Shown here one piece after another: positions 7,458 to 23,555 of a stretch of 64,000 nucleotides of DNA (position 1 is the stretch's first letter; each line of letters begins with the position of its first letter). This DNA is from a virus: IMG/VR virus record IMGVR_UViG_3300023179_000026, positions 1-64,000 of that record, one strand, 5' to 3'. A model generated the notes under the pieces. That model worked only from the letters and a program-made list of their open reading frames with translations. It made no database searches and was not told the DNA's origin. The position numbers and the translations under genes were made by a program.

Positions 7458-7462
7458 CTACT

Positions 7463-8367: not shown

Positions 8368-8398
8368 TTAAGTATTGTATATCTAAATTAATTTCTTG

Positions 8399-8785: not shown

Positions 8786-8790
8786 GATTA

Positions 8791-8844
8791 GTTCCTTATT
8801 AACTCAACAGAATCAATTGTATATTAATTAGGATATGTTGTCAA
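8791..8844 (-). promoter_or_regulatory. Early promoter-RBS cassette, copy 3
   Basis: TTGACA-17-TACAAT plus CTGTTGAGTTAATAAGGA. Confidence 0.7.
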
Positions 8845-8845
8845 G

Positions 8846-9049
8846 CTATTCTTCATCAAATAATTCACTTAGTTCTGCGGGTGTTGCACCTGTCAACAAA
8901 AACTCACGTTCATCAGCATTAAGAGTAGGAAAAGCATGTTGTATTAATGTATCACTGTTTACCCAATCACTGATCATATCTTCCGTAATTGGCAAATCCA
9001 TCGTGTTAACACACCCTGTAATCAAACTAGTACGAGAAATCAACGTCAT
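8846..9049 (-). CDS. Hypothetical protein
   Basis: 67-aa ORF with AFPTLNADEREFLLTG, a motif seen in small phage proteins; AGGAG RBS. Confidence 0.6.
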   Translation of the reverse strand: MTLISRTSLITGCVNTMDLPITEDMISDWVNSDTLIQHAFPTLNADEREFLLTGATPAELSELFDEE

Positions 9050-9149
9050 ATCAAATCTCCTAAATCAATTACCACCATCCAATTATACGACAAGTACAAA
9101 TTATAGTCAAGTGCGTTGTCATGATGACAATGTAGGTTGGCAACAACCC

Positions 9150-9731: not shown

Positions 9732-9749
9732 TTTTTACTCCTTATGATT

Positions 9750-9823
9750 TGGTACCTCCGACAAGAATTGAACTTGTAATGGTCGATTATCAATCGACTG
9801 TTATACCATTTAACTACAGAGGT
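9750..9823 (-). tRNA. tRNA-Ile(GAT)
   Basis: Loop TTGATAA, full cloverleaf, CCA. Confidence 0.9.
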
Positions 9824-9844
9824 TTTAAATATATTCACCATTTA

Positions 9845-9886
9845 ATTGTTCATGAGAGATTTGAACTCACGACCTACACTTTAAAT
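9845..9886 (-). pseudogene. tRNA 3'-half remnant
   Basis: ...TTTAA-AGTGT-AGGTC-GTGAG-TTCAAAT-CTCTC T-arm with no D arm or matching acceptor. Confidence 0.5.
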
Positions 9887-9887
9887 T

Positions 9888-9963
9888 TGGTGCTTGGGGA
9901 CAGACTCGAACTGTCATCGTCCTCCGTGTAAAGGAGACGTATTACCTCTCTACGCACCCAAGC
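9888..9963 (-). tRNA. tRNA-Val(TAC)
   Basis: Loop TTTACAC, cloverleaf, CCA; 5' end overlaps the HNH ORF stop. Confidence 0.88.
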
Positions 9964-10396
9964 CTTTATAGTCTCTCAAATAACTGTTTCTTTTAGCTAC
10001 TTTTTTATACCTGCTACCTTTACCTTTACTACCAAAATTCTCAGTTTGAGTATGGCAGTTAGGGCATAGTAATCTTAAATTACTTGGATAGTTATTATCA
10101 CTATCACCATCCATATGATCTACTTGTAATACAAGAGGCTTGTTATTCCAAATACCTCCTTGCTTACATTCTTCACAATTTTCGCCTCTTGTTTCTAAAA
10201 GATATTTTTTTAAAGCATTAGAACCATCTGGAACCAGTCCTGCTTCAATTCTACCTATAGTTTCATTTATCCACTTATATTTCCCTTGACACACATTATT
10301 ACAAAATTTATTAATTTTGCTATGCCCCCATAAATTTTCTTTGTTACAATTTAGGCAATTATATTTTCTGTTGCTTCCTTTTATACCACTTGGCAT
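9950..10396 (-). mobile_element. Free-standing HNH homing endonuclease
   Basis: CxxC...LQVDHMDGD..NN..SNLRLLCPNCH; start revised to 10396. Confidence 0.85.
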
Positions 10397-10398
10397 AG

Positions 10399-10433
10399 TA
10401 TAGACCTCCACGTATATTTAGCATAGGTCTATA
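10399..10433 (-). promoter_or_regulatory. RBS-sequestering hairpin with internal late promoter
   Basis: TATAGACCT/AGGTCTATA 9-bp stem covering part of GGAGG; CTAAATA in the loop. Confidence 0.65.
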
Positions 10434-10439
10434 TTTTTT

Positions 10440-10459
10440 GCCAACTGAGCTAACCACCC
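10440..10459 (-). pseudogene. tRNA 5'-end remnant
   Basis: GGGTGGTTAGCTCAGTTGG (acceptor strand plus D arm start) cut off by the HNH leader. Confidence 0.55.
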
Positions 10460-10503
10460 TATAAACATTATATATCAACAATTGTATTACACTAAATATT
10501 TTG

Positions 10504-11127
10504 ATGAATCCCTATGAAATTTTAGGATTATCACCTAATGCCACGCTAGACGAAATTAGAACACGTTATAAACAACTTGCTAATTTACATCATCCTGATA
10601 AGGGTGGAGATGAAAATACCTTTAAAAATATTAGCTTAGCTTATAATATACTTTCTGACCCAATCAAAAAACAAAGTTATGACACACAGGGAATATTTTT
10701 TACTGATTCACTTATGTATGGTGAAGCAAAGGATGTACTATTAAGATTATTTAATGAAAAAATTAATACACATGATCCTGATAGTAATGATTTAATTTTA
10801 TCCATGAAAAATGAAGCAGTAAACAAAAAGTCACAATTAGCCAACCAACTAGAAAGTTGTCATCAAACAATTAAAAAATTGAACAAAGTAAAAAATAAAA
10901 TCAAACAAAAAAAGAAAACTGAAAATCTAATTGAAGACTTTGTAGAAAATGGTTTAAAAAATTGCAAACACGACTTAAAAGTGTTTGCACGAGGTATACA
11001 AATATATGATTTTGTATTACTTATTTTAAACAATTATCATTACAGTGATTTTGATTGGATGGAGATGTTAAGTAACCATGTAGATATGGTAGGGGCAAAG
11101 GGGATCGAACCACGACCTAATGGTTAA
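10504..11127 (+). CDS. DnaJ J-domain protein
   Basis: NPYEILGL...YKQLANLHHPDKGG..F (HPD motif). Confidence 0.85.
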   Translation: MNPYEILGLSPNATLDEIRTRYKQLANLHHPDKGGDENTFKNISLAYNILSDPIKKQSYDTQGIFFTDSLMYGEAKDVLLRLFNEKINTHDPDSNDLILSMKNEAVNKKSQLANQLESCHQTIKKLNKVKNKIKQKKKTENLIEDFVENGLKNCKHDLKVFARGIQIYDFVLLILNNYHYSDFDWMEMLSNHVDMVGAKGIEPRPNG

Positions 11128-11161
11128 AAGCCATTTGCTCTACCTACTGAGCTATACCCCC
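11087..11161 (-). tRNA. tRNA-Lys(TTT) copy A (weak T stem)
   Basis: Loop CTTTTAA, canonical D and T loops, T stem CGTGG/CCCTT mismatched. Confidence 0.75.
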
Positions 11162-11266
11162 ATTATCTTAGGTACCTTGTCACTGTCCATTTGGACTCTC
11201 CTTTAAAAAATCTGTATCAAACGTATCGGGATCATCAACTAACTCATAGTTTATACTTATATGTTA

Positions 11267-11341
11267 TGGCGGTCCCAATGGGAATTGAACCCATCTCTGA
11301 GCAGTGACAGTGCTCTATCCTAACCAATAGACGATGGAACC
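11267..11341 (-). tRNA. tRNA-Asp(GTC)
   Basis: Loop CTGTCAC, G73, CCA. Confidence 0.9.
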
Positions 11342-11347
11342 GAAATA

Positions 11348-11423
11348 TGGGGTGACTGATGAGAGTCGAACTCACACTGTACAGAATCACAATCTGCGGC
11401 ACTACCATTATGCTACAGTCACC
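11348..11423 (-). tRNA. tRNA-His(GTG)
   Basis: Loop TTGTGAT, G-1:C73. Confidence 0.9.
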
Positions 11424-11429
11424 ATTGTG

Positions 11430-11506
11430 TGGCCTGACCGAGAGGATTTGAACCTCCGACCCACAGCTTAGAAGGCTGTTGTTCTATCCAACTGAACTAC
11501 GGTCAG
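11430..11506 (-). tRNA. tRNA-Arg(TCT)
   Basis: Loop CTTCTAA, cloverleaf, CCA. Confidence 0.92.
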
Positions 11507-11511
11507 AATGT

Positions 11512-11586
11512 TGGGCAGAGGCACTAGGAGTCGAACCTAGAATAGCGGAATCAAAATCCGATGTGATACCATTTCACCATGCCCCA
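11512..11586 (-). tRNA. tRNA-Gln(TTG)
   Basis: Loop TTTTGAT, U1 mismatch; 3' end reads G-CCCA rather than G-CCA. Confidence 0.85.
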
Positions 11587-11591
11587 ACATA

Positions 11592-11653
11592 AACAGGATG
11601 CATTATACGGTTTAGATTAGCAGTCTAATGTAATAATTTGCTGTTAGCATCCT
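11592..11653 (-). ncRNA. Y-RNA-like element 3 (ACAGCAA family) with a Ser(GCU) anticodon-arm mimic
   Basis: AGGATGC-taACAGCAA...TTAGA-CTGCTAA-TCTAA...GCATCCT-GT. Confidence 0.75.
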
Positions 11654-11659
11654 TAAACT

Positions 11660-11735
11660 TGGTGGTCAGAGCAGTACTCGAAACTGCATTTTCTTTCTTA
11701 TGAAAAAAGCTCTCTTCCTCTTAAGATATCTGACC
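11660..11735 (-). tRNA. Atypical tRNA with CAT anticodon (Met or Ile2)
   Basis: All four stems pair, loop TTCATAA, CCA; non-canonical U53-A61 and U10. Confidence 0.7.
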
Positions 11736-11759
11736 TTTAGCTGTATTTTTTTAATGTAC

Positions 11760-12380
11760 TTAATGATGTTTAATTAATACAAAATTTGTAATACAAAATC
11801 TGCCATTTCCTTGATTTTTTAAATGTGTTGGTATTGATACTTTTGTTACTTCATGAGTTATTATAGAAGGGAAAATCACTAATCTATTGCTTAAACACTT
11901 AATTTTTTTGTTATGATTTAAAATTAAGTCTCCACCTTTGAAGGATTTAGGACTTTTAAATAACCAAAAAAGTGTTGTTATTACTGAGCTATCAGTATGG
12001 GGTTTATAAAATTCATTGTCTTCGTAATAGTTTAACATTGTACAATCAGTATTTGAATAAAGAAAGTAGTGGTAAAAATAATCAATTTTCAAAAGCTCTT
12101 CACATACTTCAGGGGAAAATAATTGTCTAGTTAATGTTAAAATTTTTGACTGTGATCTATTTTCATTATAATATAGATCTAAAAACAGACCTGTATTATT
12201 TCTCAACAAGTTTTCATTTTTATCTTTTGCAGAAAATGTAGGATTAGGCGGTTCTAGTAAATCATTGTTCAATAGAAACAATGATTCTTCTAATAATTCA
12301 TTATATTCAGCATTGTTAAAAAAGTTGTCTATAATTATTGCTTTTAAACTGTGAACTTTAAAATGTTTTATTTTTCTCAT
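11760..12380 (-). CDS. 2OG-Fe(II) oxygenase (prolyl-hydroxylase-like)
   Basis: YKPHTD...GGDL...FPS..THEV..GRF. Confidence 0.85.
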   Translation of the reverse strand: MRKIKHFKVHSLKAIIIDNFFNNAEYNELLEESLFLLNNDLLEPPNPTFSAKDKNENLLRNNTGLFLDLYYNENRSQSKILTLTRQLFSPEVCEELLKIDYFYHYFLYSNTDCTMLNYYEDNEFYKPHTDSSVITTLFWLFKSPKSFKGGDLILNHNKKIKCLSNRLVIFPSIITHEVTKVSIPTHLKNQGNGRFCITNFVLIKHH

Positions 12381-12395
12381 GGTAAACCTTTATTT

Positions 12396-12469
12396 TGGAG
12401 CGGGTAGCGAGAATCGAACTCGCAAATTTTCCTTGGCAAGGAAACAGGTTACCTTTACATCATACCCGC
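12396..12469 (-). tRNA. tRNA-Gly(GCC)
   Basis: Loop TTGCCAA, U73, CCA. Confidence 0.9.
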
Positions 12470-12470
12470 A

Positions 12471-13043
12471 TTAAAATGCCCAACTTACAAAAACAAACCT
12501 ATTACCCTTTGTAATTTTATTTACATTATGGGGATATAAAAAAACACTTGGAAATATTATAATGCTTCCTGCAGATAATTTGAGAACTTTATCTCTAATT
12601 ACTAGTTCTCCACCTTCATAATTATCATTTAACACACCAATTAAACTAAGTACAGGAATTCCTTTAATTTGTCCATCAAAAATTGAATGTATGTGATCAA
12701 CGTGTGGTTCCATTTTGGAATTAGTTGTATATTTAGTAAATCTTGGCGAATAAAATCCCTGAAACCTACTATAATATAGTTTTAAACCGTAAGTATCTTC
12801 ATTTAAATACCTAGTAAAACACTCATCAATTATTTGTTCTAATTCTTGTGACTCATTTATTTTATTGAAATATACTAATGGTTCAAACTCATGTTGAAAC
12901 GTACTATGATTATATAAATCATGAACCTTATTAAATTGGTGTCGTTCCCAAGTGCAATTTTTAAGAGATGATAAAATTTTTTTACAAAAAGGTTTTTCTA
13001 ATTTTTTTTCGTAAACCTTAATATAGTCATTTAAATTGTTCAT
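12471..13043 (-). CDS. 2OG-Fe(II) oxygenase
   Basis: EPHVD...YEGGEL...FPS.FLYPHNV..GNR. Confidence 0.85.
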   Translation of the reverse strand: MNNLNDYIKVYEKKLEKPFCKKILSSLKNCTWERHQFNKVHDLYNHSTFQHEFEPLVYFNKINESQELEQIIDECFTRYLNEDTYGLKLYYSRFQGFYSPRFTKYTTNSKMEPHVDHIHSIFDGQIKGIPVLSLIGVLNDNYEGGELVIRDKVLKLSAGSIIIFPSVFLYPHNVNKITKGNRFVFVSWAF

Positions 13044-13044
13044 G

Positions 13045-13359
13045 TTAGTATCTCTTACGTCTTCTGTGGTGATCTTCCATTATTTCACACAATGTTCTAT
13101 TTTCATATTTTACCCTATCCATACGATTTTCACTAGGTGTACCCCAATACAAATGCTTAGGGTTGCTACATTTACCATTATTGCATGCATGACATACTAA
13201 AATGCCATAACCATTTGGTATGGTAGTTTCAAGCAAATGTGCTAGCAAACCTTTACATAAAGTAGAACCACCACCACGTTCAATACAATAATCATCCAAG
13301 TCTAAATGTTCTTGACGGTCTTTTTTAGGTAAAGTTATATACTCATAGATGTTTTTCAC
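13045..13359 (-). mobile_element. HNH (His-Me finger) endonuclease
   Basis: VCHACNNGKCSNPKHLYWGTPSEN; TATAAATA late promoter at 13365-13372. Confidence 0.75.
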
Positions 13360-13398
13360 TATGATATTTATAATAGTGAATTTAGGATAAATAAAATT

Positions 13399-13956
13399 AT
13401 GAAATGTTATGAAATTATAAAAGAAGCACGTTTAAGTGACTTTCCATATACCGATGAACCTGATAAAACTACGGTTCAATTAAGAAGTCATCAAAGTCAA
13501 ATTTATACAAATCTTGCAAAAAAAGTTCAACGTATCAATGAACTAAAAACAGAATTAAAAGCACTTGAAGATGAAGTAAAACAATCAACACGTGAAAATG
13601 TTGCAGATTTATTTGATGTTGAAGATGCAGTAAAAACACGTGTTATTGACACAGTGTCATTTATTGTAACGTTATCAAAAGATCCCAAAGTCACTACTTC
13701 ACCAAAATATAAAGATATTTTAGAAGTATTAGAAAAACAGCTCACCCCCGAATTAATTACTGTGCTTGAAAATTTAAAAAAGACTATGGTAACAATTACT
13801 CAGAAAGCACCATCATTAAGAATTGACCCTAAAGACAAACAAAAGTTAGATGAAGGCGTACTATCTAGCTATATAAATAAGCTAAAAAGTTGGGTTATGA
13901 ATTGGAGTAAAAAATATGATGCCAAACTTAATCAACTTAAAAGTTTGGCATATTAA
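13399..13956 (+). CDS. Hypothetical late (probably virion) protein
   Basis: 185-aa coiled-coil ORF with ATAAATA 5 nt upstream. Confidence 0.65.
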   Translation: MKCYEIIKEARLSDFPYTDEPDKTTVQLRSHQSQIYTNLAKKVQRINELKTELKALEDEVKQSTRENVADLFDVEDAVKTRVIDTVSFIVTLSKDPKVTTSPKYKDILEVLEKQLTPELITVLENLKKTMVTITQKAPSLRIDPKDKQKLDEGVLSSYINKLKSWVMNWSKKYDAKLNQLKSLAY

Positions 13957-13961
13957 ATTAA

Positions 13962-14153
13962 TTATTCAAAAACGACTATATCCCATTTATTAATTGGACA
14001 TTTTTCATTATGATGTGTGTATAATGTTTTAGCGTATTCATTTCGCTTTTTACATAATGTTGCACTATAAAATTCACAATTTCTGCAAATTCTTGCACGT
14101 TCCTGTGCCCATGCAGGTTCATACCCTAAGAAAGCCTCATTAACAGTTGACAT
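13962..14153 (-). CDS. Small Cys-rich hypothetical protein
   Basis: CRNC...C...CPINKW. Confidence 0.5.
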   Translation of the reverse strand: MSTVNEAFLGYEPAWAQERARICRNCEFYSATLCKKRNEYAKTLYTHHNEKCPINKWDIVVFE

Positions 14154-14212
14154 AATTAATCCTGTAAAATAAATAATATTTATCCTTATAACTAGTATAA
14201 GTTAAGATTTTG

Positions 14213-14294
14213 TGGTGCCCATGGAGGGATTCGAACCCCCACGCTAGGCACTTGCTCCTAAGGCAAGCGTGTCTACCAATTTCACCACATGGGC
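14213..14294 (-). tRNA. tRNA-Leu(TAG)
   Basis: Loop CTTAGGA, variable arm, CCA. Confidence 0.92.
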
Positions 14295-14301
14295 ATTTTA
14301 A

Positions 14302-14377
14302 TTGTCTCTCTGCTTGGATTTGAACCAAGACCGCTGCGCCCCAAACGCAGTACGCTGCCAGATTACGCCACAGAGAG
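14302..14377 (-). tRNA. tRNA-Pro(TGG), CCA not encoded
   Basis: Loop TTTGGGG; ends A-CAA. Confidence 0.85.
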
Positions 14378-14431
14378 TATTCTTTAAATTATTATAATTA
14401 AGAACACTATGTTCAATATGCTTAATTATAA

Positions 14432-14505
14432 TGGTAGGGGCACAGAGAATCAAACTCTGATTTATTGGTTAAAAGCCAATTACTTTATCATTAAGTTATA
14501 CCCCC
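14432..14505 (-). tRNA. tRNA-Lys(TTT) copy B (degenerate D and T loops)
   Basis: All stems pair, loop CTTTTAA; D loop lacks GG, T loop TTTGATT. Confidence 0.7.
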
Positions 14506-14523
14506 ATTATCTTTCGTACCTTG

Positions 14524-14952
14524 TCACTGTCCATTTGGACTCTCCTTTAAAAAACTTGTATCAAATGTATCAGGATCATCAACCAACTGATTTTCACTGA
14601 CTTCAACCCATTTACCATCAATCTTTACTTCTACTTTAACTTTTTTCAATTCACGTTCCAACGCACGTTCAGCTTCTACTAATTCACCTGTGCGTTTCAT
14701 ATATTCTAATTTAATCCACTTTTTAAATTTATCACTATTAGCCATTTTTTCAAATGCATCTTTACGATTGTCTAGTTGGCTACGACTAGATTCGCTATAA
14801 CCATGTGCACCACTTGCACGATGTGTACAATGCACTGCTGAACTTGTTTTATTACGTTTTTGTCCACCTGCTCCTGTACCTTTAGTATATGACCATTCAC
14901 AATCTTTAGCAGTAATACTAAAGAACGGTTCTTCTTTTTTGTTAACTTTCAT
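14524..14952 (-). CDS. RF-1 domain peptidyl-tRNA hydrolase (ArfB/PrfH-like)
   Basis: GTGAGGQKRNKTSSAV...RSQLDNR (GGQ motif). Confidence 0.85.
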   Translation of the reverse strand: MKVNKKEEPFFSITAKDCEWSYTKGTGAGGQKRNKTSSAVHCTHRASGAHGYSESSRSQLDNRKDAFEKMANSDKFKKWIKLEYMKRTGELVEAERALERELKKVKVEVKIDGKWVEVSENQLVDDPDTFDTSFLKESPNGQ

Positions 14953-15157
14953 TATATTTCCTATACTAAATACGGTTATGAACGATGTTTACGAAACTTT
15001 AACACCAAATGGTTTACATATTTACTTATGTAGAAACCATAATGGTGTATGCATTGTCATATTACGTGATGTATATGATCAAAAATTTATGATGAAGTAT
15101 TTTAATGATTATAAACTAGCTTTTCAATTTATTCTTGATTTTGAACATCCAATTTAA
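14939..15157 (+). CDS. Hypothetical protein
   Basis: Short ORF, probable start MNDVYE after a TAAATA motif. Confidence 0.45.
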   Translation: MLTFIIFPILNTVMNDVYETLTPNGLHIYLCRNHNGVCIVILRDVYDQKFMMKYFNDYKLAFQFILDFEHPI

Positions 15158-15199
15158 AATATATTTCATGTGTTCTATGTTAATTAATAATTTTTTGCT

Positions 15200-15832
15200 T
15201 TACTTAAACATTGGACCTTCTACCCAAGCAACAATGCTTTTTCTTGAACCTGCCGTAATTGGTGTAACTTGATGTATCATCCAACTAGGAAAGCATATTA
15301 AAGTTCCACGTTTTTGTTCTACTGTAATTTTATCCCTTGAAACGGATGAAAAAATATTAAATTCACCACCTTCATACTCGCTTTTATCTTGTAAAAATAA
15401 TACTGTACTTAATTTTCTTATAAGGTGTGAGTTATGAATAGGACCCATAATTAAATCCATATGATCATCATATTTTGCGCCTATAGTATCATACAAAGTG
15501 TATTGAAATAAACTGAAACCGAAGAGATCAAAACGATAAAAATCGTTATTAAGTCTTGTTACTCTAGCAAAATATTCATCAAAAAACCAATTGATAGCAG
15601 GGTCGATGTTAATCCACGCTACTTTTGAATCACGGACTTCTTTACTAAAACTTTTTATTTTTTTTTTATTTTTTTGATTGGTGTCTCTTTGATTTATAAC
15701 AGAGGCATCTTCTGCAATTAATTTATCGCCGTATGATTCAATTGTTTTTAACTGCTCTTCGCTAAACGCATTATGCAAATATACATAAGGATATATAATT
15801 TTTCCAACAGTTTCTACATTTGTAGTTAACAT
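15200..15832 (-). CDS. PKHD-type 2OG-Fe(II) hydroxylase
   Basis: YDDHMD...RKLS...YEGGEF...FPSWMIHQVTP..GSRKS. Confidence 0.88.
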   Translation of the reverse strand: MLTTNVETVGKIIYPYVYLHNAFSEEQLKTIESYGDKLIAEDASVINQRDTNQKNKKKIKSFSKEVRDSKVAWINIDPAINWFFDEYFARVTRLNNDFYRFDLFGFSLFQYTLYDTIGAKYDDHMDLIMGPIHNSHLIRKLSTVLFLQDKSEYEGGEFNIFSSVSRDKITVEQKRGTLICFPSWMIHQVTPITAGSRKSIVAWVEGPMFK

Positions 15833-15849
15833 TGTTTCCCTTTTTTATA

Positions 15850-15925
15850 TGGTGGAGGTAAACGGGTTCGAACCGATGACCTTTAACTTGCAAAGCTACT
15901 GCTCTCCCAACTGAGCTATACCCCC
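15850..15925 (-). tRNA. tRNA-Ala(TGC)
   Basis: Loop TTTGCAA, G3:U70, CCA; TATAAATA at 15937-15944 upstream. Confidence 0.9.
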
Positions 15926-15968
15926 AAAAGTACTTTTATTTATAAACGTAAAATGCACTTTAATAATT

Positions 15969-16063
15969 TATGGTGACAGGCTCCCGAACCTGTGCTGACA
16001 AGAGTACGACCACCGTTTTCACGTATCCTCTCTTACTGCTCTTCAACGTTAAGCTACACCATA
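15969..16063 (-). ncRNA. tRNA-like RNA with an expanded, non-decoding anticodon domain
   Basis: 7-bp acceptor TATGGTG/CACCATA, U8A9, D arm, 7-bp stem closing a 25-nt insert, T arm ACAGG-TTCGGGAG-CCTGT. Confidence 0.6.
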
Positions 16064-16126
16064 TTGAAACACACTTACGGCTTTAAACCGCTGAACAATA
16101 CTGCCCTGATAAAATGTGCTTCAATA
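16062..16126 (-). ncRNA. Putative small structured RNA
   Basis: 12-bp closing stem TATTGAAGCACA/TGTGTTTCAATA enclosing two small hairpins. Confidence 0.45.
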
Positions 16127-16213
16127 TGGTGGGTGCTCTCCGATTCGAACAGAGAAGGCCAAAGACAAGAGATTTACAGTCTCCCCCCGATACCGTTACG
16201 GGACTAAACACCC
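16127..16213 (-). tRNA. tRNA-Tyr(GTA)
   Basis: Loop CTGTAAA, variable arm, CCA. Confidence 0.9.
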
Positions 16214-16315
16214 AAAATTTACATCTTTTTTAAAGATCTTTTAAACTGACTAACTTGCGTACAAATCAATCAGTATATATATTACATCAAACTAAAATTA
16301 TTTTCAAGCATTTTT

Positions 16316-16391
16316 TGGTGCCGCCTCGTGGAATTGAACCACGTTCCTAGATTCTTCAGACCCATGCTATGACCACATCAGCTAAAGCGGC
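16316..16391 (-). tRNA. tRNA-Phe(GAA)
   Basis: Loop CTGAAGA, CCA. Confidence 0.9.
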
Positions 16392-16395
16392 GTTA

Positions 16396-16469
16396 TGGCG
16401 TTCCATAGCGGATTTGAACCGCTGTTCACGGATAGAAAGTCCGTTTTCGTAACCCCTAGAAGAATGAAC
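16396..16469 (-). tRNA. tRNA-Glu(TTC), irregular acceptor and D arm
   Basis: Loop CTTTCTA, perfect anticodon and T arms; apparent 1-nt deletion in the acceptor 5' strand. Confidence 0.75.
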
Positions 16470-16473
16470 TTGA

Positions 16474-16944
16474 TTATGCTACAACAACATATCCCCACAA
16501 TTTACGTGGCTTGTTCGCTTTGTATCTGCTATCAAAAGCATCATGCACAACATGATTAATACACGCAGACAAGTGTCCCCTAGTATGCAGAATTACTTTA
16601 CCTGTAGGAATATCTTTTTTCGTTACATACTTACGTGACTTTTTTACTGATACATACTTGTAACCACGTTCTTCCAAATATTGTTTCCATACCGAGGTAA
16701 TAACACCTTTGTCAGGATTAAAATCATATCCCGCTGCATATTGCATTTCATTCAACTCCCACCACACTTGATGGTAGGGCAAACCTAATATAATTGAAAT
16801 TGAACGTGTTACACAATCACGTTTTTTTGTACCTTTAAATCCATCTGAAGCACGTCCACCATCTGTTTGAACATATGAACATGCTTCTTTTTCTAGACTG
16901 ATTACTGTTACTGAACCATTGTAATAATTAACATTCAATATCAT
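16474..16944 (-). CDS. Hypothetical protein, possible papain-like Cys hydrolase
   Basis: DCVTRSI...GHLSAC...D pattern. Confidence 0.5.
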   Translation of the reverse strand: MILNVNYYNGSVTVISLEKEACSYVQTDGGRASDGFKGTKKRDCVTRSISIILGLPYHQVWWELNEMQYAAGYDFNPDKGVITSVWKQYLEERGYKYVSVKKSRKYVTKKDIPTGKVILHTRGHLSACINHVVHDAFDSRYKANKPRKLWGYVVVA

Positions 16945-16997
16945 ATCAATCTCCTAATCAACAATTTAATTATATGTTAATTTGGACAAAGAGTCAA

Positions 16998-17243
16998 CTA
17001 TGCGGTTTTTTTAAATGTTTGTTGTGCGTAATCTACAACAGTTGCAGTGCTACCCCAAGCATTAGCAGGTATTTCGTTGTAAACATACAACATAATATCT
17101 TTTAATGCGGCTAAATTTTTAGAATCAGCTTTAAATACAGCACCCGCTAAATCATTAGTAAGTACTGCTCGGAGAAAACTACCTGGCATAATGCCTTCGT
17201 TAACATATCTGTCAAGTGAATCTTTAGTAGCTTGCGGTATCAT
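16998..17243 (-). CDS. Hypothetical protein
   Basis: MIPQATKDSLDRYV..PGSFLRAVL.NDL; AAGGAG RBS, start revised. Confidence 0.65.
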   Translation of the reverse strand: MIPQATKDSLDRYVNEGIMPGSFLRAVLTNDLAGAVFKADSKNLAALKDIMLYVYNEIPANAWGSTATVVDYAQQTFKKTA

Positions 17244-17253
17244 TTTTAACTCC

Positions 17254-17565
17254 TTACAGTTTAATCCAACCAAAACTATCACATAAAAACTCGGTGGTCT
17301 CACCATTGGTACACACTTCAACAATATCACCTATACTAAGCGAACGTCCTCTACCGTAAAGTTCTACACGTTCACTTTGACGATAAGGATTGTTAGTAAG
17401 GTCAAAAGCTTCTTCAGCAGCTTTTGTACCTTCAAGATCAGTGAAAAATGGTGCTGCAGCTTTATATAAATCAAGCACTGAACGAACTAACCCAATACGA
17501 TTTTTTGAGAAATAAAACTCGGTTGAAACTTCTTCGGGGGCTAACTTGATAGTCACTAAACTCAT
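17254..17565 (-). CDS. Hypothetical protein (YodL-like C-terminus)
   Basis: RSLSIGDIVEV...CDSFGW; own promoter. Confidence 0.55.
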   Translation of the reverse strand: MSLVTIKLAPEEVSTEFYFSKNRIGLVRSVLDLYKAAAPFFTDLEGTKAAEEAFDLTNNPYRQSERVELYGRGRSLSIGDIVEVCTNGETTEFLCDSFGWIKL

Positions 17566-17620
17566 TTCAATCTCCGTTTCGTTGTCAATAGAGATATATT
17601 ATCTAAATTTAGATATATTG

Positions 17621-18142
17621 TCAAGCAATTTTTATTTGTATGGTTTTTGCAACAGGTACTTGTCTTACATATTCGCCATCACCTTTACGGTTAGCCCAAG
17701 GTTTTAATGGATAGGACAAGATTAATTCACTGTCAATTAATACTGCTCTTGTGCATAACGCATTTAATTGAACATAACATACTTTGTGATCTTCAGCTAC
17801 AGTAAGTGGAATCTTTTTAAGATATTCTGCACTTTTACGCCACTGATGGTCTTTACGTTCAATACAATTAATTTCACTGAATGGAAATGGTGTATCATCC
17901 CGCCAATTACCATGTCTAACTTCTATTTCCCAAGTTTGGATAACTTTATCTGTATCTTTATCTAGGGTAAGTAAATCAATACCGTAATCATTTGGGTTTT
18001 CTATAGTTGTTAAAGTTGTAGGTAAAAAACCATTCAAATACTTAATAAATGCTTTCTTACCTTTACTATCATATTGAGAGTGATCGTTACGGTCAAATGG
18101 TTTGAGGTTACCACTCATACCACGTTTTTGTTCAATTTTCAT
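17621..18142 (-). CDS. Putative PD-(D/E)XK nuclease-like protein
   Basis: YGIDL...EIEVR pattern. Confidence 0.45.
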   Translation of the reverse strand: MKIEQKRGMSGNLKPFDRNDHSQYDSKGKKAFIKYLNGFLPTTLTTIENPNDYGIDLLTLDKDTDKVIQTWEIEVRHGNWRDDTPFPFSEINCIERKDHQWRKSAEYLKKIPLTVAEDHKVCYVQLNALCTRAVLIDSELILSYPLKPWANRKGDGEYVRQVPVAKTIQIKIA

Positions 18143-18158
18143 AAGTTATAAGTTAAGT

Positions 18159-18232
18159 TGGTGCCCCTTGACAGAATCGAACTGCCAATTGATGATTACA
18201 AATCAACCGTTATACCATTTAACTAAAAGGGC
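18159..18232 (-). tRNA. tRNA-Thr(TGT)
   Basis: Loop TTTGTAA, CCA. Confidence 0.9.
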
Positions 18233-18241
18233 AATAATAAT

Positions 18242-18598
18242 TTACCTAGCATCTCGTGTAAGATAATTTACACGAATTTTCTTTGGATTGAAATAAGTTT
18301 GGACAATATACTGTGCCAAATTTATATCAAATGGTTTACAGCTAAAAATATCGATATATGCAGAACCATCTAATTCCATGAAATGCGCTGTAATACTACT
18401 TGTTGTAATCGCTTGCATTAATGTATAACCTTGTTTGGGATCATCTTCAAGTAAATATTCAATCCATGGTTCACCTGCAGCAATCATATCAATAGTTGGC
18501 ACAAGGTACTTGATCCAATTGTATATGTTTTCACGACTATCGATTTTCTCGCAACCACTACAATCTAACAAAAGATGATAACCAAAATATTCTGACAT
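18242..18598 (-). CDS. speD: S-adenosylmethionine decarboxylase-like proenzyme
   Basis: GYHLLLD...ITTSSITAH...AYIDIFSCK.F. Confidence 0.75.
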   Translation of the reverse strand: MSEYFGYHLLLDCSGCEKIDSRENIYNWIKYLVPTIDMIAAGEPWIEYLLEDDPKQGYTLMQAITTSSITAHFMELDGSAYIDIFSCKPFDINLAQYIVQTYFNPKKIRVNYLTRDAR

Positions 18599-18618
18599 TC
18601 GTTTTCCTTTTTAATAAT

Positions 18619-19134
18619 TTATCCTAGTTCACGTTTTGTAATAATTTCTTTAAATGTTTCATCGTTAGAAAACACAGTGAACATGCCATTTTTATAACCT
18701 ATAAGATGTTTACCTAATGTTGCAGTATGTTCTGCCCATTCGTAAACATAATCTTTTATTGTAATTGATGTTGGAACCATTCTGTAGTAAAAATAATTTT
18801 CAATCCATTTAGGTAGTAGGATAATATCTGATTCACTTGGTTTCATATTGTCAGGTATGGTTGAATTTTCTCGCCAACCACATAAAAATACTTTACATAA
18901 TTGTGGACGCACAGGGTATATGCCACATCTTTTTTTAACAAGAAATCTACATTTACCACCACGTAAACTCATATCAAAACCATAAATGTCAGCAGAAAGA
19001 AACCCTTCGCAACATCTAGAACACCCATCACATGTTCTATCGTTTTTTTCTTGGTTTATTGGGTAAACGACCACTAGCTTTTTGTCTTTCGTAAAAATGA
19101 ACTTTAACGTGACAATTTGGGCATAGTACATCAC
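18619..19134 (-). CDS. YkgJ-type Cys-cluster (Zn/Fe-S) protein
   Basis: CDGCSRCC...CRFL...CGIYPVRPQLCK.F; true start uncertain because of HNH overlap. Confidence 0.7.
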   Translation of the reverse strand: MMYYAQIVTLKFIFTKDKKLVVVYPINQEKNDRTCDGCSRCCEGFLSADIYGFDMSLRGGKCRFLVKKRCGIYPVRPQLCKVFLCGWRENSTIPDNMKPSESDIILLPKWIENYFYYRMVPTSITIKDYVYEWAEHTATLGKHLIGYKNGMFTVFSNDETFKEIITKRELG

Positions 19135-19489
19135 ATTTGTCTAGTTCAGGTTTGATTTCTTCCAATGTTTTATTTCGCATTTGTGCCCATGTAAATTCTT
19201 TTTCAGACGGATCACGATGATGTAACGTGTATAACCCAAGAATAGGTTCGTCAATACCACATGCCATACAACGCATACCACCTTTATAATTTAAAGCTTC
19301 TATTTTACGTTGTTCAACACGATTCTTTTTGTAAAAATTTTTATTATCAATACACTTATGTTGAATGTTTTTCTTTTGAATTGCTATCCTTAAAAACTTT
19401 ATATCAACGTAAAGGGCTTTTGCTAAATCAGTAAGTGGCTTATTTTCAAAGTTGCTTACTTGTCTTTTTAAATTTTCAATAAATGTCAT
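19037..19489 (-). mobile_element. HNH endonuclease
   Basis: CMACG...LHHRDP.EK...ELDKCDVLCPNCH; directly behind tRNA-Asn. Confidence 0.8.
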
Positions 19490-19508
19490 ACAAACTCAAT
19501 AATATGTT

Positions 19509-19583
19509 TGGCTCCAATGCGTGGGATCGAACCACGGACCAATTGATTAACAGTCAACTGCTCTACCTCTGAGCTACATTGGA
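19509..19583 (-). tRNA. tRNA-Asn(GTT)
   Basis: Loop CTGTTAA, G73, CCA; TATAAATA at 19593-19600. Confidence 0.93.
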
Positions 19584-19624
19584 ATATGATTTTATTTATA
19601 AGCCACTACAACGGCTAAAATTTT

Positions 19625-19718
19625 TGGTGGAAAGTGTGGGATTCGAACCCACGAAGCAGCTTTTTGACCACTTGCCTTCTTAGCAGGAAGGTACCTTCAG
19701 CCTCTCGGTCAACTTTCC
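19625..19718 (-). tRNA. tRNA-Ser(GCT)
   Basis: Loop CTGCTAA, long variable arm, CCA. Confidence 0.9.
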
Positions 19719-19720
19719 GA

Positions 19721-19855
19721 TTATGCAAAAATAAATGCGTATACAAATATTGCTATAAACATTAATAATGATACCCACCAATAAGTAAGCATGCCTACTG
19801 TTATAAGTAATGCTAACCAAGCACCATGATACAAATGTAATTGCCACGTTGTCAT
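19721..19855 (-). CDS. Small membrane protein (44 aa, not in ORF track)
   Basis: MTTWQLHLYHGAWLALLITVGMLTYWWVSLLMFIAIFVYAFIFA, strongly hydrophobic. Confidence 0.5.
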   Translation of the reverse strand: MTTWQLHLYHGAWLALLITVGMLTYWWVSLLMFIAIFVYAFIFA

Positions 19856-19896
19856 AACAGTATTTATATGGTAGATACCACCGCACTGTAATTATA

Positions 19897-20514
19897 CTAT
19901 TTCGTAATAAAATTATCAACGATTGCAGTATTAAAACTTATACTAATACGATCTTTATTTGTATTATTAGTTAGTACATAATGGTCTAAATAGCCGGGAA
20001 AAATAACTAATTTGCCAGTCTTTGGAGGTATTTTCCATTCAATAGAATTAAATTCATTGTATTCGCTGATAATTTCCCCATTGCTATATAAATTGGCATA
20101 ACAATAGGTTTGTTCAATCTTAGAATTAGGATTGTTAAACACAATATCACCTGTATCAAAATCAGCTTCTACGTAGTACACTCCCGACAAATAAGATAAA
20201 CCATGATTATGGCGAAGATTATAATGATGTTTTTGATTTATATTTACCCAAACTGCAGTTATTTCTTGCGAAATATTTTGGCGCAGTTTTAAAATAAGAT
20301 TAGTGTTATTAACTCTAGCCATAATATGACTTAATAGGTCATCAAGCATTGGATGGTTACTTGGCACTAAGTTGCTCTGCCAACCACCACAATTAGTCAA
20401 TACTCTACCTGAGTCTGCTTTTTTTAATTCATAACAAAAATTTTTTAATTTTTGATTGTCAATTTCAAGATTATCAACTAATATAAAATTAGAAAAAATT
20501 GGGAAGGTATACAT
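19897..20514 (-). CDS. Putative 2OG-Fe(II) oxygenase (TIGR02466-like)
   Basis: WVNIN...HNH..SYLSGVYY..GDIVF...FPGYLDHYV...RISISFN. Confidence 0.85.
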   Translation of the reverse strand: MYTFPIFSNFILVDNLEIDNQKLKNFCYELKKADSGRVLTNCGGWQSNLVPSNHPMLDDLLSHIMARVNNTNLILKLRQNISQEITAVWVNINQKHHYNLRHNHGLSYLSGVYYVEADFDTGDIVFNNPNSKIEQTYCYANLYSNGEIISEYNEFNSIEWKIPPKTGKLVIFPGYLDHYVLTNNTNKDRISISFNTAIVDNFITK

Positions 20515-20528
20515 ATTTATTTCCTATA

Positions 20529-20623
20529 TGGTGGAGAGCGGAGGAGTCGAACCCCATCCCCTTCTTCAGCGGAACCCAGTTTTCAAGGCTGGTCGGCGCA
20601 CCAACGCACCTGCATCACTCTCC
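20529..20623 (-). tRNA. tRNA-Ser(TGA), unusual D arm
   Basis: Loop CTTGAAA, long variable arm, CCA. Confidence 0.82.
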
Positions 20624-20630
20624 GTAAACT

Positions 20631-21125
20631 TTATTTTATTTTAGGTACGATTTCACGATCCCAATAGCTTTTCTTACCTATTCTAGAAGAAACAGCTTTG
20701 TCTACACCTACAATGGATTTCCATTTTTCGGATCGTGCTTTACTTTGTTCAACATCAAACCCACTATAATCATCACCAACCCATTCCCACTTATGATGCC
20801 ATATCCAAGGATCAGCTAATGGTTTAGTAATTTTAACGTTACCATCTCTAGTAACTTTAATAGATGTGCCTACTGTAGGTTCATCTGCTGTGTCAAAGTC
20901 AGGTGATGAAATAAATGCGATTGAACCATCTTTTAAATCATAACGTACCACAGTGTAATCAAAATCAGGTGGTAACTTAGAAACAGCTAACTTATACCAT
21001 GACAAAGGTATTTCACGTTTGAGTAATGGTGAATTAACATAGTCTTTGTGAACATAAATTTGTCCACCTATGACTTTACCAATTTTACGATTGGTTGATT
21101 CTGTAAGTATTTCTTTAATTAGCAT
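20631..21125 (-). CDS. Hypothetical protein resembling a domain of DNA phosphorothioation-associated methyltransferases
   Basis: IGKVIGGQIYVH...SPDFDT..EP...WHHKW; start revised to 21125 because the longer ORF runs through tRNAs. Confidence 0.5.
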   Translation of the reverse strand: MLIKEILTESTNRKIGKVIGGQIYVHKDYVNSPLLKREIPLSWYKLAVSKLPPDFDYTVVRYDLKDGSIAFISSPDFDTADEPTVGTSIKVTRDGNVKITKPLADPWIWHHKWEWVGDDYSGFDVEQSKARSEKWKSIVGVDKAVSSRIGKKSYWDREIVPKIK

Positions 21126-21147
21126 GTTGTATTTATTCAAACAAAAA

Positions 21148-21224
21148 TGGCGTCCCCAGACCGAATCGAACGGCCAACCTTTGATTTTGGAGATCACTGC
21201 TCTGCCTAATTGAGCTATGGAGAC
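21148..21224 (-). tRNA. tRNA-Trp(CCA)
   Basis: Loop CTCCAAA, G73, CCA. Confidence 0.9.
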
Positions 21225-21233
21225 ATTTTCATA

Positions 21234-21309
21234 TGGAGTAAGCGACAGGAGTTGAACCTGCATAAAACGGGGTTGCAATCCGTTCCCTAGCCATTCGGGT
21301 CACGCTTAC
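21234..21309 (-). tRNA. tRNA-Cys(GCA)
   Basis: Loop TTGCAAC, U73, CCA. Confidence 0.9.
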
Positions 21310-21314
21310 ATATA

Positions 21315-21431
21315 AAACAGGATGCGTTATCGTTGCTCTACCATTAAGCTACATACCTTTTACAAGATATGGTAGTATTCGAACCTACAACCAACGGCTC
21401 CCGAAGCATCATAATTTGCTGTTAGCATCCT
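21315..21431 (-). ncRNA. Y-RNA-like element 4 (ACAGCAA family): YrlA-type circularly permuted tRNA mimic
   Basis: AGGATGC..ACAGCAA stem, then T arm (GTAGG-TTCGAAT-ACTAC), closed 7-bp acceptor (CATATCT-tgtaa-AGGTATG), then D arm (TA-GCTT-AATGGTA-GAGC). Confidence 0.85.
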
Positions 21432-21436
21432 AAACT

Positions 21437-21514
21437 TGGCACCCCCTGTAGGATTCAAACCCACGACCTTACCGTTCGTAGCGGTATGCTCTAAGTTCAC
21501 TGAGCTAAGGGGAT
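21437..21514 (-). tRNA. tRNA-Arg(ACG)
   Basis: Loop CTACGAA, CCA; T loop TTTGAAT. Confidence 0.88.
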
Positions 21515-21520
21515 ATATTT

Positions 21521-21685
21521 TTACATTCTTAAAACAACTGTACTCAATTATCTTAAGAATGTAGTGGGGCCATCCCCCACTTGCTCATCTTACTCCTGTG
21601 TTATCGCCACAGTTTCATACCGAGACTCCGACCGTTCGTGGCATGTTTATCGTGCACCACTGAGACCTCGTTTCTCACACACGTA
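21521..21685 (-). ncRNA. Putative structured RNA of unknown class heading the tRNA operon
   Basis: GC-richer ORF-free segment with hairpins TGAGA/TCTCA, CTGTG/CACAG, GTGGGG/CCCCAC and a 13-bp stem at 21522-21563. Confidence 0.5.
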
Positions 21686-21719
21686 AAACAAAAAACCCTA
21701 GGGGTTTATTCCTAGGGTT
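21686..21719 (-). terminator. Attenuator terminator
   Basis: AACCCTAGG-aataaacc-CCTAGGGTT followed by TTTTGTTTT. Confidence 0.85.
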
Positions 21720-21746
21720 CAGTGTAATCTAATGTACTATCTATGA

Positions 21747-21863
21747 TTAGCCTGAACCCCTGCCCCCAATATCCTCAAAATTATATGAGCGAGCATGGGG
21801 GATCGCACACCAACTTGGTTGTGTACCCTTCGCTAAACTCATTGTATTTCTGAGACTTTTCAT
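21747..21863 (-). CDS. 38-aa attenuator leader peptide (not in ORF track)
   Basis: MKSLRNTMSLAKGTQPSWCAIPHARSYNFEDIGGRGSG; last codons overlap the antiterminator strand. Confidence 0.7.
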   Translation of the reverse strand: MKSLRNTMSLAKGTQPSWCAIPHARSYNFEDIGGRGSG

Positions 21864-21870
21864 GTTTGTA

Positions 21871-21899
21871 ACTTTACCTTATAAAATTTGTTTTGTCAA
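21871..21899 (-). promoter_or_regulatory. Sigma70-type promoter for the leader/tRNA operon
   Basis: TTGACA-17 bp-TAAAGT; ATG 7 nt after the -10 (leaderless-like). Confidence 0.7.
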
Positions 21900-21978
21900 C
21901 TACTTTTGTATCTTAATGTAAGGTTATTTATACATTGTTGCAAAAACCCTACAAAAAAGCCATATTTTTTGCATATTT

Positions 21979-22057
<79 letters not shown>

Positions 22058-22098
22058 AACATGTTTCGTAATATAGCAGACAATTATTTAGGTGTCAA

Positions 22099-22953
22099 CT
22101 ACTTTAAACCCATTTCTTTCCTAATTTGGGTTGCACTGATACTAGTGATTGTTTCATCAAATGTTTCTTCACCACTTGTATAGCCTACACCACGACCCCA
22201 ACCAATATGTACAATGTTTGGTACTAACATAATTTCATATTGCCCTTGATACAATGGATCCAAATCACGCTTAATATAACCTTTAACTTGTTCTACATTG
22301 AAAGGATTACTTCCTTGCCATCCTTGCACATCACGTATTTGTATAATGACTTGTCCTGTGCGTTTAAGTAATCGTTCAAAAAGAGCACGATGACCTGCAT
22401 GCCACGGTTGCCAACGTCCTAGCATCTGCACCGTTTCTTTACGCCAATCGAAAGTTGGTCTACGTTGTTCTCTAATAATTCGTTCACCAACATATGCTAC
22501 CCAAAATTCAGCATTTTTTTCTGTAATACGAAAATCATATATTTCAGGTGGGACAAATGCTTTGTTAGTATCTTCATAACGACTATTGTCAATAGTATCC
22601 ATCCATATTGTCCAATCTGCTTTAAAATTATTGCGCATTTCAACTAGAGGAGCGACAAAATCACATATGACATAATCACTACCACTGTTTATAGCAAAAT
22701 CTGCCATACGTATAGATTGGCGTATACGACCTTCTGTGCTAAAGTCCCAATCATTGTATCGTTTTCTAACATCATCAGCATTAAACCATTTAACGGATGG
22801 TTTCCATTCTTTAGGAACAATTTCGTATCTGCTTAAAATGCTAATTGGCATTTCAGTTATTGAACGTGGCTGTTGTAGATAGTTTTTTAATCGTTCTGCA
22901 AAATATGTTTTACCTGCTCCTGGCAAGCCCATGATAAGAATTTTAGTAGTCAT
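22099..22953 (-). CDS. Adenylylsulfate kinase-like / cytidylyltransferase-like fusion
   Basis: GLPGAGKT P-loop, NADDVR..DFS.EGR; C-terminal GRWQPWHAGH (HxGH). Confidence 0.8.
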   Translation of the reverse strand: MTTKILIMGLPGAGKTYFAERLKNYLQQPRSITEMPISILSRYEIVPKEWKPSVKWFNADDVRKRYNDWDFSTEGRIRQSIRMADFAINSGSDYVICDFVAPLVEMRNNFKADWTIWMDTIDNSRYEDTNKAFVPPEIYDFRITEKNAEFWVAYVGERIIREQRRPTFDWRKETVQMLGRWQPWHAGHRALFERLLKRTGQVIIQIRDVQGWQGSNPFNVEQVKGYIKRDLDPLYQGQYEIMLVPNIVHIGWGRGVGYTSGEETFDETITSISATQIRKEMGLK

Positions 22954-22991
22954 AAAATTATTTAACTCGATTACATACTGTAAATATTTTT

Positions 22992-23555
22992 ATGAATTAT
23001 GATGCCTTTAGCCACGGACAAATAGAAAGTAAAATATGGTTGTGTGAAAAGTTAGAACCATATATTAAATTTAATTCAACAGTATGGGTATTAGGTAGTT
23101 GGTATAATACCGTAGCTTTGTTAATGCATACTAGAAAACCCTTTTACTATGAAATGATCATAGGGTATGACAATGACCCAAACTGCCAACCCATAGCTGA
23201 CAAAATTTGTGCAGCATGGACTATTCATGCTCCTATTAAAGTAAAAAATTTTGTTGCTGACGTAAACAATTTATCATGGGAAAACCCACCTGATGTTGTT
23301 ATTAATTGCAGTTTTGAGCATTTTGATGATCAAAAATGGTTTGATGATATTCCACAAGGTGTTTTAGTTTGTTTACAAAGTACGAATATAACTGATGTTA
23401 ATTATCCATGGCTAGTAAAATACCCTAGCAATTCATTAACAGATTTTAACTCTAAATTTAAACTACAAGAAAAATTATTTTTAGGGGTTCATCACATCAA
23501 GATGGGATTTAGTTCTAGCGGGTATGATAGATTTATGATGATTGGTTATAAGTAA
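22992..23555 (+). CDS. Class I SAM-dependent methyltransferase-like protein
   Basis: VWVLGSWY..YDND..VVINCSFEH pattern. Confidence 0.65.
   Translation: MNYDAFSHGQIESKIWLCEKLEPYIKFNSTVWVLGSWYNTVALLMHTRKPFYYEMIIGYDNDPNCQPIADKICAAWTIHAPIKVKNFVADVNNLSWENPPDVVINCSFEHFDDQKWFDDIPQGVLVCLQSTNITDVNYPWLVKYPSNSLTDFNSKFKLQEKLFLGVHHIKMGFSSSGYDRFMMIGYK

Follow-up and report, generated by a model that had tools for sequence, protein, structure and literature searches.

Introduction

Known transcription attenuators rely on runs of regulatory codons for their sensitivity, and in attenuators of the trp type complete translation of the leader peptide leads to termination. The leaders of amino-acid operons (trpL, hisL, leuL, pheL, thrL and the ilv leaders) comprise a short open reading frame (ORF), a terminator and a mutually exclusive antiterminator, with the position of the ribosome deciding between the two structures, and about 60–70 nt separate the stop codon from the end of the U-run. 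In multivalent attenuators, i.e. the ilvGMEDA leader with its Leu, Val and Ile codons and the thr leader with its Thr and Ile codons, mixed codons sense more than one amino acid; these are two or three related amino acids, represented in runs. In pyrBI-type attenuation, the gap between the polymerase and the leading ribosome sets termination; the variable is the speed of the polymerase (UTP), and a closely following ribosome prevents formation of the terminator. Leaders of the erm and vmlR type are ribosome-stalling attenuators that answer to translation inhibitors; slowing of a ribosome on the leader ORF turns the terminator off, so that translation performance is the signal, and they act through arrest peptides or drug-bound ribosomes in the control of resistance proteins. 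The mef/mel leader is a ribosome-stalling attenuator that answers to translation inhibitors, too (PMC4335068).

The leader described here stands at the head of a block of RNA genes in a giant lake phage and is probably a ribosome-dependent transcription attenuator that gauges overall decoding. Its anatomy, its conservation, the covariation of its helices, the selection for completeness of its peptide and its synteny were observed directly. It shares with the amino-acid-operon leaders the short ORF, the terminator, the exclusive antiterminator and the spacing of about 60–70 nt between the stop codon and the U-run end, and as there the ribosome position would decide; however, it has no run of a single residue, each amino acid being represented once or a few times, its stop codon lies within the antiterminator arm, and the genes placed behind it are phage RNA genes (ncRNA and tRNAs) rather than genes for biosynthetic enzymes. 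Where the multivalent attenuators sample two or three amino acids, this leader samples all twenty in the family as a whole. In contrast to the stalling attenuators, the sequence of the peptide is free and its composition is constrained, and in contrast to pyrBI, with which it would share a kinetic race of transcription against leader translation, a timely ribosome is predicted to favour the terminator, with decoding speed as the variable. A full-text literature search returned no published account of such a leader switch, and composition-complete, rather than sequence-specific, sensing was not found described for leader peptides in the literature searched.

Organization of the leader locus

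The DNA analyzed (the window) is a stretch of 64,000 nt of an IMG/VR record of 137 kb, which is estimated to be 39% complete; ribonucleotide reductase and helicase genes on the record identify its source as a large phage. All features of the leader module are on the minus strand of the window and are, from upstream to downstream:

22953–22099, minus strand: gene for a protein of 284 amino acids, upstream neighbour of the leader block
22098–22070, minus strand: strong promoter-like site of tRNA-Met
22057–21979, minus strand: tRNA-Met, upstream of the leader and with its own promoter
21899–21871, minus strand: putative sigma-70-like promoter (TTGACA, 17 nt, TAAAGT; 10 of 12 matches)
21863–21750, with TAA at 21749–21747, minus strand: leader ORF of 38 codons (protein P0001), 19 of the 20 amino acids, without Val
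21823–21806, minus strand: small predicted hairpin P-a within the leader ORF (RNA fold)
21801–21763, minus strand: predicted hairpin P-b within the leader ORF, a C-run pairing with the first G-run (RNA fold)
21760–21714, minus strand: candidate antiterminator hairpin P-c, 5' arm formed by codons 35–38 and the stop codon, 3' arm overlapping the 5' arm of the terminator
21720–21685 (stem-loop 21720–21693), minus strand: predicted intrinsic terminator with a 10-bp stem, an 8-nt loop and a U-run (−15.5 kcal/mol)
21684–21520, minus strand: conserved structured ncRNA of about 165 nt without an ORF, the predicted first read-through product
21514–21437, minus strand: tRNA-Arg(ACG), the first tRNA behind the switch, followed by 22 more same-strand tRNAs (ARAGORN)
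21431–21315, minus strand: small RNA following tRNA-Arg

The anatomy given in the original prediction was confirmed: a promoter TTGACA-17-TAAAGT followed 7 nt past its −10 hexamer by an ATG (21863–21861) with no Shine–Dalgarno sequence at a normal distance, a 38-codon ORF with every amino acid except Val, and a 9-bp hairpin formed by the last codons, GGGGUUCAG (21760–21752), with CUGAACCCU (21722–21714), overlapping the 5' arm of the terminator. The other early genes of the phage have AAGGAG-type sites 6–9 nt ahead of their ATG. The inner 5-bp helix of P-c takes in the stop codon. In six relatives both promoter hexamers are unchanged and the spacer is variable, with TAAGGT as the −10 hexamer of one contig, L005. 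The terminator stem-loop (21720–21693) is the strongest terminator-like site within positions 4500–23000. Seven of the ten bases of its 5' arm are also used in P-c, where they pair with 21760–21754; the two structures, which had been predicted to be mutually exclusive, thus compete for most of the arm, whereas a 6-bp mini-hairpin with the U-run could still form beside the antiterminator, and in these folds the exclusivity is strong, not absolute.

Relatives of the leader

Five other contigs contain the same leader, four of them (L002, L003, L004, L086) about 96% identical to the window and one (L005) 77% identical. Exact-word scans with words of the leader and with words of the ncRNA returned the same four viral contigs, and a metagenome scan added the close relative L086; a scan with the back-translated leader peptide returned the same four contigs only. 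With a kinase gene as bait, 80 IMG/VR loci were obtained, of which only four contain the leader and the others are without nearby tRNAs; the kinase gene is therefore no guide to the element. No match to the leader region was obtained with blastn against GenBank phages, in which relatives of the neighbouring 284-aa gene are only about 35% identical. A search of 1.84 billion representative proteins with a leader-peptide HMM found no relatives (two spurious matches).

The 165-nt downstream ncRNA as bait led to two distant relatives, L098 and L122. Both have, upstream of the ncRNA, a perfect promoter, a 28-nt 5' UTR and an ORF, 41 or 42 codons long and encoding 19 or 20 different amino acids, followed by the same hairpin–terminator arrangement as in the window. 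A scan with the 5' UTR common to these two gave 26 loci, termed the main family; the window clade is a divergent clade without this UTR. Since the 26 loci were fetched by the UTR, its conservation is partly by construction, whereas completeness of the peptide was not used as bait. The relatives used for the comparisons of amino-acid diversity, stop position and hairpin covariation were found independently of the property tested in each case.

The main-family 5' UTR (22 nt ending at the ATG, with an AGGA some 15 nt ahead of the start codon) shows no differences among 26 contigs (L123–L148; also L098:210–234 and L122:1772–1796) despite very different ORFs, and it pairs with the 5' arm of the terminator in several folds; it may serve a special type of initiation or act as an additional element of the switch.

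Amino-acid content of the leader peptides

In the window leader, each amino acid present occurs one to five times, most of them once or twice, and there is no regulatory codon run. Taken alone, its count of 19 amino acids in 38 codons is unremarkable, being expected in about 5% of random ORFs of the same composition and reached also in seven of the 219 ORFs of at least 38 codons in the window; the weight of the observation comes from the relatives. The set of 20 distinct leader peptides (38–58 codons, 11 lineages) comprises 16 with all 20 amino acids and four with 19, and the complete main-family ORFs that begin at the shared ATG (40–58 codons) have all 20 amino acids, except for one with 19. 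Shuffling the columns of the alignment, which keeps positional conservation, gave a mean of 1.3 complete peptides out of 20 and a maximum of six in 20,000 shuffles. For the 11 lineage representatives and the composition of the family, the combined Fisher p is 5e-8; it is 1.6e-7 without the window, and 1.7e-3 under perfectly even use of amino acids.

The peptides themselves are poorly conserved. Between the window clade and the main family no similarity was detectable with hhalign, there is a weak positional consensus within the main family, and close main-family pairs show 8–10 residue differences with only 2–3 synonymous changes, both members being complete. The rare residues Trp, Cys and His shift position among lineages. 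In L005, 26 nucleotide changes have altered 16 residues, yet its peptide is complete (20 of 20): His, Tyr and both Ile have disappeared from their positions, each reappearing elsewhere, and Val was gained. Random introduction of 26 changes gave 20 of 20 in 1.1% of simulations. The completeness of the amino-acid inventory is, judged by these comparisons, under selection, and the diversity of the window leader, noted before any relative was known, was borne out in homologs whose peptides are beyond alignment.

The sampling extends to codon boxes. For the six-codon amino acids Ser, Arg and Leu, both boxes are used in 48 of 54 cases (36.2 expected), or in 28 of 33 cases when only lineage representatives are counted (22.1 expected, p = 0.005), an excess that points to sampling at the level of tRNA species and not to a demand made by the peptide.

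One member, L098, has four consecutive Ser codons (L098:313–324, codons 28–31) at a place at which stalling of the ribosome would free the antiterminator; no other family member seen has a classical-looking run of codons.

Reading frame and substitution pattern

The leader ORF is open at the same length in all six members of the window clade (the window, L002, L003, L004, L086 and L005), and the main-family ORFs of 40–58 codons are open in all complete loci, with UAA, UAG or UGA as stop codon. In the four close relatives, seven of eight substitutions are synonymous third-position changes; the dS values of the leader (0.19–0.30) are close to those of the neighbouring protein gene (0.17–0.27), and its dN is 0–0.011. 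The substitution pattern among close relatives is coding-like.

Between the window group and L005, the 26 substitutions are distributed 8/10/8 over the codon positions (dN/dS 0.58). In the predicted helices these changes are compensatory or wobble changes, except for one lost terminal G-U pair in P-c, and the loops vary freely: in P-a one stem pair is changed from A-U to G-U and two changes are in the loop, and P-b has one compensatory double change and two wobble changes with zero pairs broken. RNA structure is thus selected as well, and with helices inside the ORF under selection at the RNA level, part of the conservation of the leader is not coding.

The layout of promoter, ORF and terminator is that of a normal gene, and a small early phage protein acting in trans, with the terminator ending a monocistronic gene and the hairpin at the stop codon stabilizing or tuning the mRNA, would suit the synonymous bias among close relatives (dN/dS about 0.04 in the leader) and the weak positional consensus within the main family. 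We consider such a protein unlikely, since peptides of different clades cannot be aligned and close pairs have exchanged 8–10 residues against 2–3 synonymous changes with completeness kept, the rare residues move instead of staying in place, and the Ser, Arg and Leu codon boxes are over-sampled, which the function of a peptide does not need. A normal ribosome-binding site is lacking, all of the 18 sequences have their stop codon within a covarying hairpin some of whose bases belong to the terminator too, and the search of the 1.84 billion proteins, without relatives found, speaks against such a protein as well.

Antiterminator and terminator structures

Local nascent folds were computed for 18 sequences, starting 36 nt ahead of the stop codon and ending with the 5' arm of the terminator. 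All 18 folded into one long hairpin whose 3' arm is the terminator 5' arm. The 5' half of the hairpin contains the last codons and the stop codon; in L128 and L138 it contains the codons just before the stop. Two longer ORFs have their stop codon in the hairpin interior. The frame of L122 runs past an out-of-frame UAA and stops one codon later. With the stop codons differing (UAA, UAG, UGA) and with this shift in L122, the thing conserved is a stop at that place, not a sequence motif.

Covariation was found in both helices. P-c shows double changes in eight of 16 pairs (alignment A7, 18 sequences); its covariation score and its share of paired cells were reached by none of 500 shuffles, and 77% of its cells are paired, compared with 27–56% in slid controls. 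The terminator shows compensatory changes in five of ten pairs, with 96.7% of cells paired (18 sequences). Homologs thus keep the register of ORF and antiterminator and the covarying hairpins that the original prediction had named as its tests: all 18 sequences have the stop at the corresponding position, whichever of the three stop codons is used, and covariation extends to P-c as well as to the terminator. An RNAalifold consensus on a further alignment (A2) was dropped, as that alignment included the untranscribed promoter and gave long-range pairs with it.

For the whole leader of the window clade, the antiterminated form is the fold of minimum energy, and forcing the terminator costs 2–5 kcal/mol. 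When the bases from −15 to +14 around the stop codon were held single-stranded as a ribosome footprint, the complete terminator formed in the window clade, and over all sequences it was restored fully or minus one pair (9/10 to 13/13). Most main-family members have the terminator already in their equilibrium fold, with the 5' arm of P-c paired elsewhere; the switch there must hence be kinetic, and the attenuator model depends on folding kinetics. In eight of the 18 whole-leader nascent folds, the partner of the terminator 5' arm is not the end of the ORF but the 5' UTR or some other region far upstream, compared with the local folds, in which P-c is present in all 18. In L098, the 3' strand of the in-ORF helix P-b overlaps the antiterminator arm, which gives the full 1:2 / 2:3 / 3:4 layout of the amino-acid-operon leaders.

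The equilibrium folds of the main family, and the pairing of the 5' UTR with the terminator arm in the eight nascent folds, which makes more than two states possible, would also fit a translation-coupled switch with another signal or the opposite polarity, e.g. one in which translation protects from Rho or nucleases, or in which the ribosome opens upstream pairing, and read-through rises with translation. This arrangement seems improbable to us, given that the stop codon is in the 5' half of the antiterminator in 18 of 18, that all sequences regain the terminator under a footprint on the stop, and that the geometry is that of trp-type attenuators, where full translation terminates.

If the ORF were incidental, the element could be an RNA-only switch that binds a protein, a metabolite or a tRNA, or a stand-alone sRNA acting in trans. 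P-a, P-b, P-c and the terminator are kept with compensatory changes, also within the ORF, the L005 changes are even over codon positions, there is no Shine–Dalgarno sequence, and the region is covered by RNA-library contigs, all of which agree with a structured RNA; furthermore, attenuator RNAs freed by termination can be sRNAs, as is rnTrpL (PMC6614838). An incidental frame, however, would not stay open over 38–58 codons in 20 diverged variants, with three stop codons at one structural place, nor would it keep all 20 amino acids, and the synonymous bias in close relatives is not expected of it. As of a stand-alone sRNA, a promoter-like site and a terminator are present, but the frame is conserved and compositionally constrained. 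The Rfam search speaks against known RNA families: over the whole window at gathering thresholds, and over 21400–22100 at E <= 10, only tRNAs and chance matches were returned, the only leader-family match in 21400–22100 being His_leader with 15.2 bits against a gathering threshold of 49 (E = 8.2), with no T-box. We give little credence to an RNA-only element.

Proposed mechanism

The leader has the structural parts of an attenuator, i.e. a conserved short ORF, a terminator before the genes to be regulated, a hairpin sharing bases with it and an ORF position that selects the hairpin; it has no run of cognate regulatory codons, and completeness is constrained instead. We infer that the leader ORF is translated, and likewise the polarity of the switch and its physiological trigger. 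The 38-codon leader would be transcribed either from the promoter-like site at 21899 or from further upstream, the tRNA-Met promoter at 22098. In P-c, the predicted 5' arm is made up of the final codons with the stop codon, and the 3' arm would be the 5' arm of the strong terminator. P-c would be made before the 3' arm of the terminator is transcribed, blocking termination by default, and the default would be read-through into the ncRNA, tRNA-Arg, the further small RNA, tRNA-Cys and tRNA-Trp. A ribosome that is on the last codons in time would prevent P-c, the terminator would fold and transcription would end; slow decoding of any amino acid would delay the ribosome and result in more read-through. 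Selection preserves in the leader a sampling of essentially every amino acid, and of both boxes for Ser, Arg and Leu; the trigger may be a shortage of amino acids, cleavage of tRNAs or anything else that slows ribosomes. The logic of trp and his attenuators, which had been read into the single leader of the window, is supported by the amino-acid diversity, stop position and covariation in the relatives and by the synteny with tRNA arrays. Against the attenuator stand the missing Shine–Dalgarno sequence, the possibly promoter-linked ATG, the RNA-library contigs that begin upstream of the predicted start, the even 8/10/8 spread of changes to L005, the absence of codon runs, the mini-terminator, the equilibrium folds of most of the main family and the missing Val.

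Under this mechanism, the expression of phage tRNAs and of the ncRNA would follow, in real time, how well the cell can decode each kind of codon, which would bear on the question why phages carry tRNA arrays and how these arrays are controlled. Omission of a single amino acid would be predicted to raise read-through, except omission of Val for the Val-less leader of the window. The element represents a rare case of selection on the amino-acid inventory of a peptide instead of on its sequence, and it could be used as a small natural reporter for the overall translation capacity of a cell. More tentatively, and with the odds rather against it, the leader might act as a kinetic 'decoding speedometer' tuned to tRNA species, by which large phages detect depletion or cleavage of any host tRNA (e.g. 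by anticodon-nuclease defences or host shut-off) and answer with their own tRNA array and ncRNA; phage tRNAs that restore leader translation would then close a self-limiting supply loop.

RNA-library coverage and start of the transcript

Contigs of four metatranscriptome libraries (four studies) cover 21589–21944, 21631–21936, 21667–21889 and 21764–22010; such contigs carry no strand or end information, and carry-over of DNA is possible. Three libraries have a single contig across the terminator, and three have one across the predicted start; in library X18 the join of two contigs falls between the start and the terminator. The uncovered parts of 21300–22200, including tRNAs and the neighbouring gene, were not used as evidence.

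The contigs reach 25–146 nt upstream of the predicted start (DNA carry-over possible), and as they cross it, the RNA behind these contigs, if RNA, is not leaderless. The motif AAACATG (7 bases) occurs at equal distance from the −10 hexamer behind both the tRNA-Met promoter and the leader promoter (22060–22069 and 21861–21870, minus strand), which suggests a duplicated promoter or a common start-site motif. Its presence behind the tRNA-Met promoter weakens the argument for a leaderless transcript, and the leader ATG may be part of a promoter-linked motif.

Genes downstream of the leader

In every main-family locus with enough flanking sequence, a same-strand tRNA array begins 400–1200 nt past the leader ATG. 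No tRNA is located upstream of the leader in main-family loci; the window clade alone has one (tRNA-Met), with its own promoter. In most lineages, the conserved ncRNA lies between the leader and the first tRNA; it follows the terminator immediately or is separated from it by a small gene that has a normal ribosome-binding site. The ncRNA is about 99% identical between the window and L005, compared with 77% for the leader and about 80% for the flanks, and distant homologs are present in L098:596–770, L122:2150–2330, L123, L125, L130, L134, L139 and L143. Three hairpin stems of the ncRNA covary across lineages, and the loop and linker motifs AACGAGG, GAUAA and GAACGGNCGG are fixed; no Rfam match was obtained for the ncRNA. 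One of its loops resembles a Shine–Dalgarno sequence. Hammerhead-like motifs in the ncRNA were dropped for want of Rfam support; a tmRNA was dropped as well, ARAGORN having found none.

On the minus strand of the window, no promoter-like site with at least 10 of 12 matches lies between 21871 and 19919, and the next such site is at 19919. The switch can thus, as far as predicted promoters tell, control the ncRNA, tRNA-Arg, the small RNA at 21315–21431, tRNA-Cys, tRNA-Trp and one or two genes; the whole tRNA array of the window is not controllable by it. The proposal that the leader gates the tRNA array fits in that the leader heads a same-strand array in every main-family locus with enough flank, but not in its extent, with the reach in the window ending at 19919. 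By position, the element most consistently behind the putative switch is the ncRNA rather than a tRNA. L005 is without tRNA-Arg(ACG) and without the small RNA at 21315–21431 (window 21261–21520 compared with L005:8157–8223), so the content behind the switch varies among close phages.

In one branch (L098:437–583, L122:1983–2147, L126, L130, L144), an acidic ORF of 48–54 amino acids with a strong ribosome-binding site is located between the leader terminator and the ncRNA, and in L098 and L119 a gene for an HNH endonuclease is next, ahead of the first tRNA.

Two further sequences on the minus strand of the window resemble tRNAs. At 20530–20625, a tRNA-shaped sequence of 96 nt, which has a UGA (Ser) anticodon loop and an encoded CCA but an unusual D region, occupies the place of tRNA-Ser(UGA) of the relatives, and was called by neither ARAGORN nor Rfam; the sequence at 16399–16469 is a tRNA by Rfam (36 bits) and is absent from the ARAGORN list.

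Divergence from the close relatives jumps at the boundary between 22099–22953 and 20631–22098: the dS of the 284-aa gene is 0.8–1.0, whereas the dS of the leader, the tRNAs and the next gene is about 0.2 to the same relatives. From this difference, the RNA-gene block seems to have been exchanged recently between these phages.
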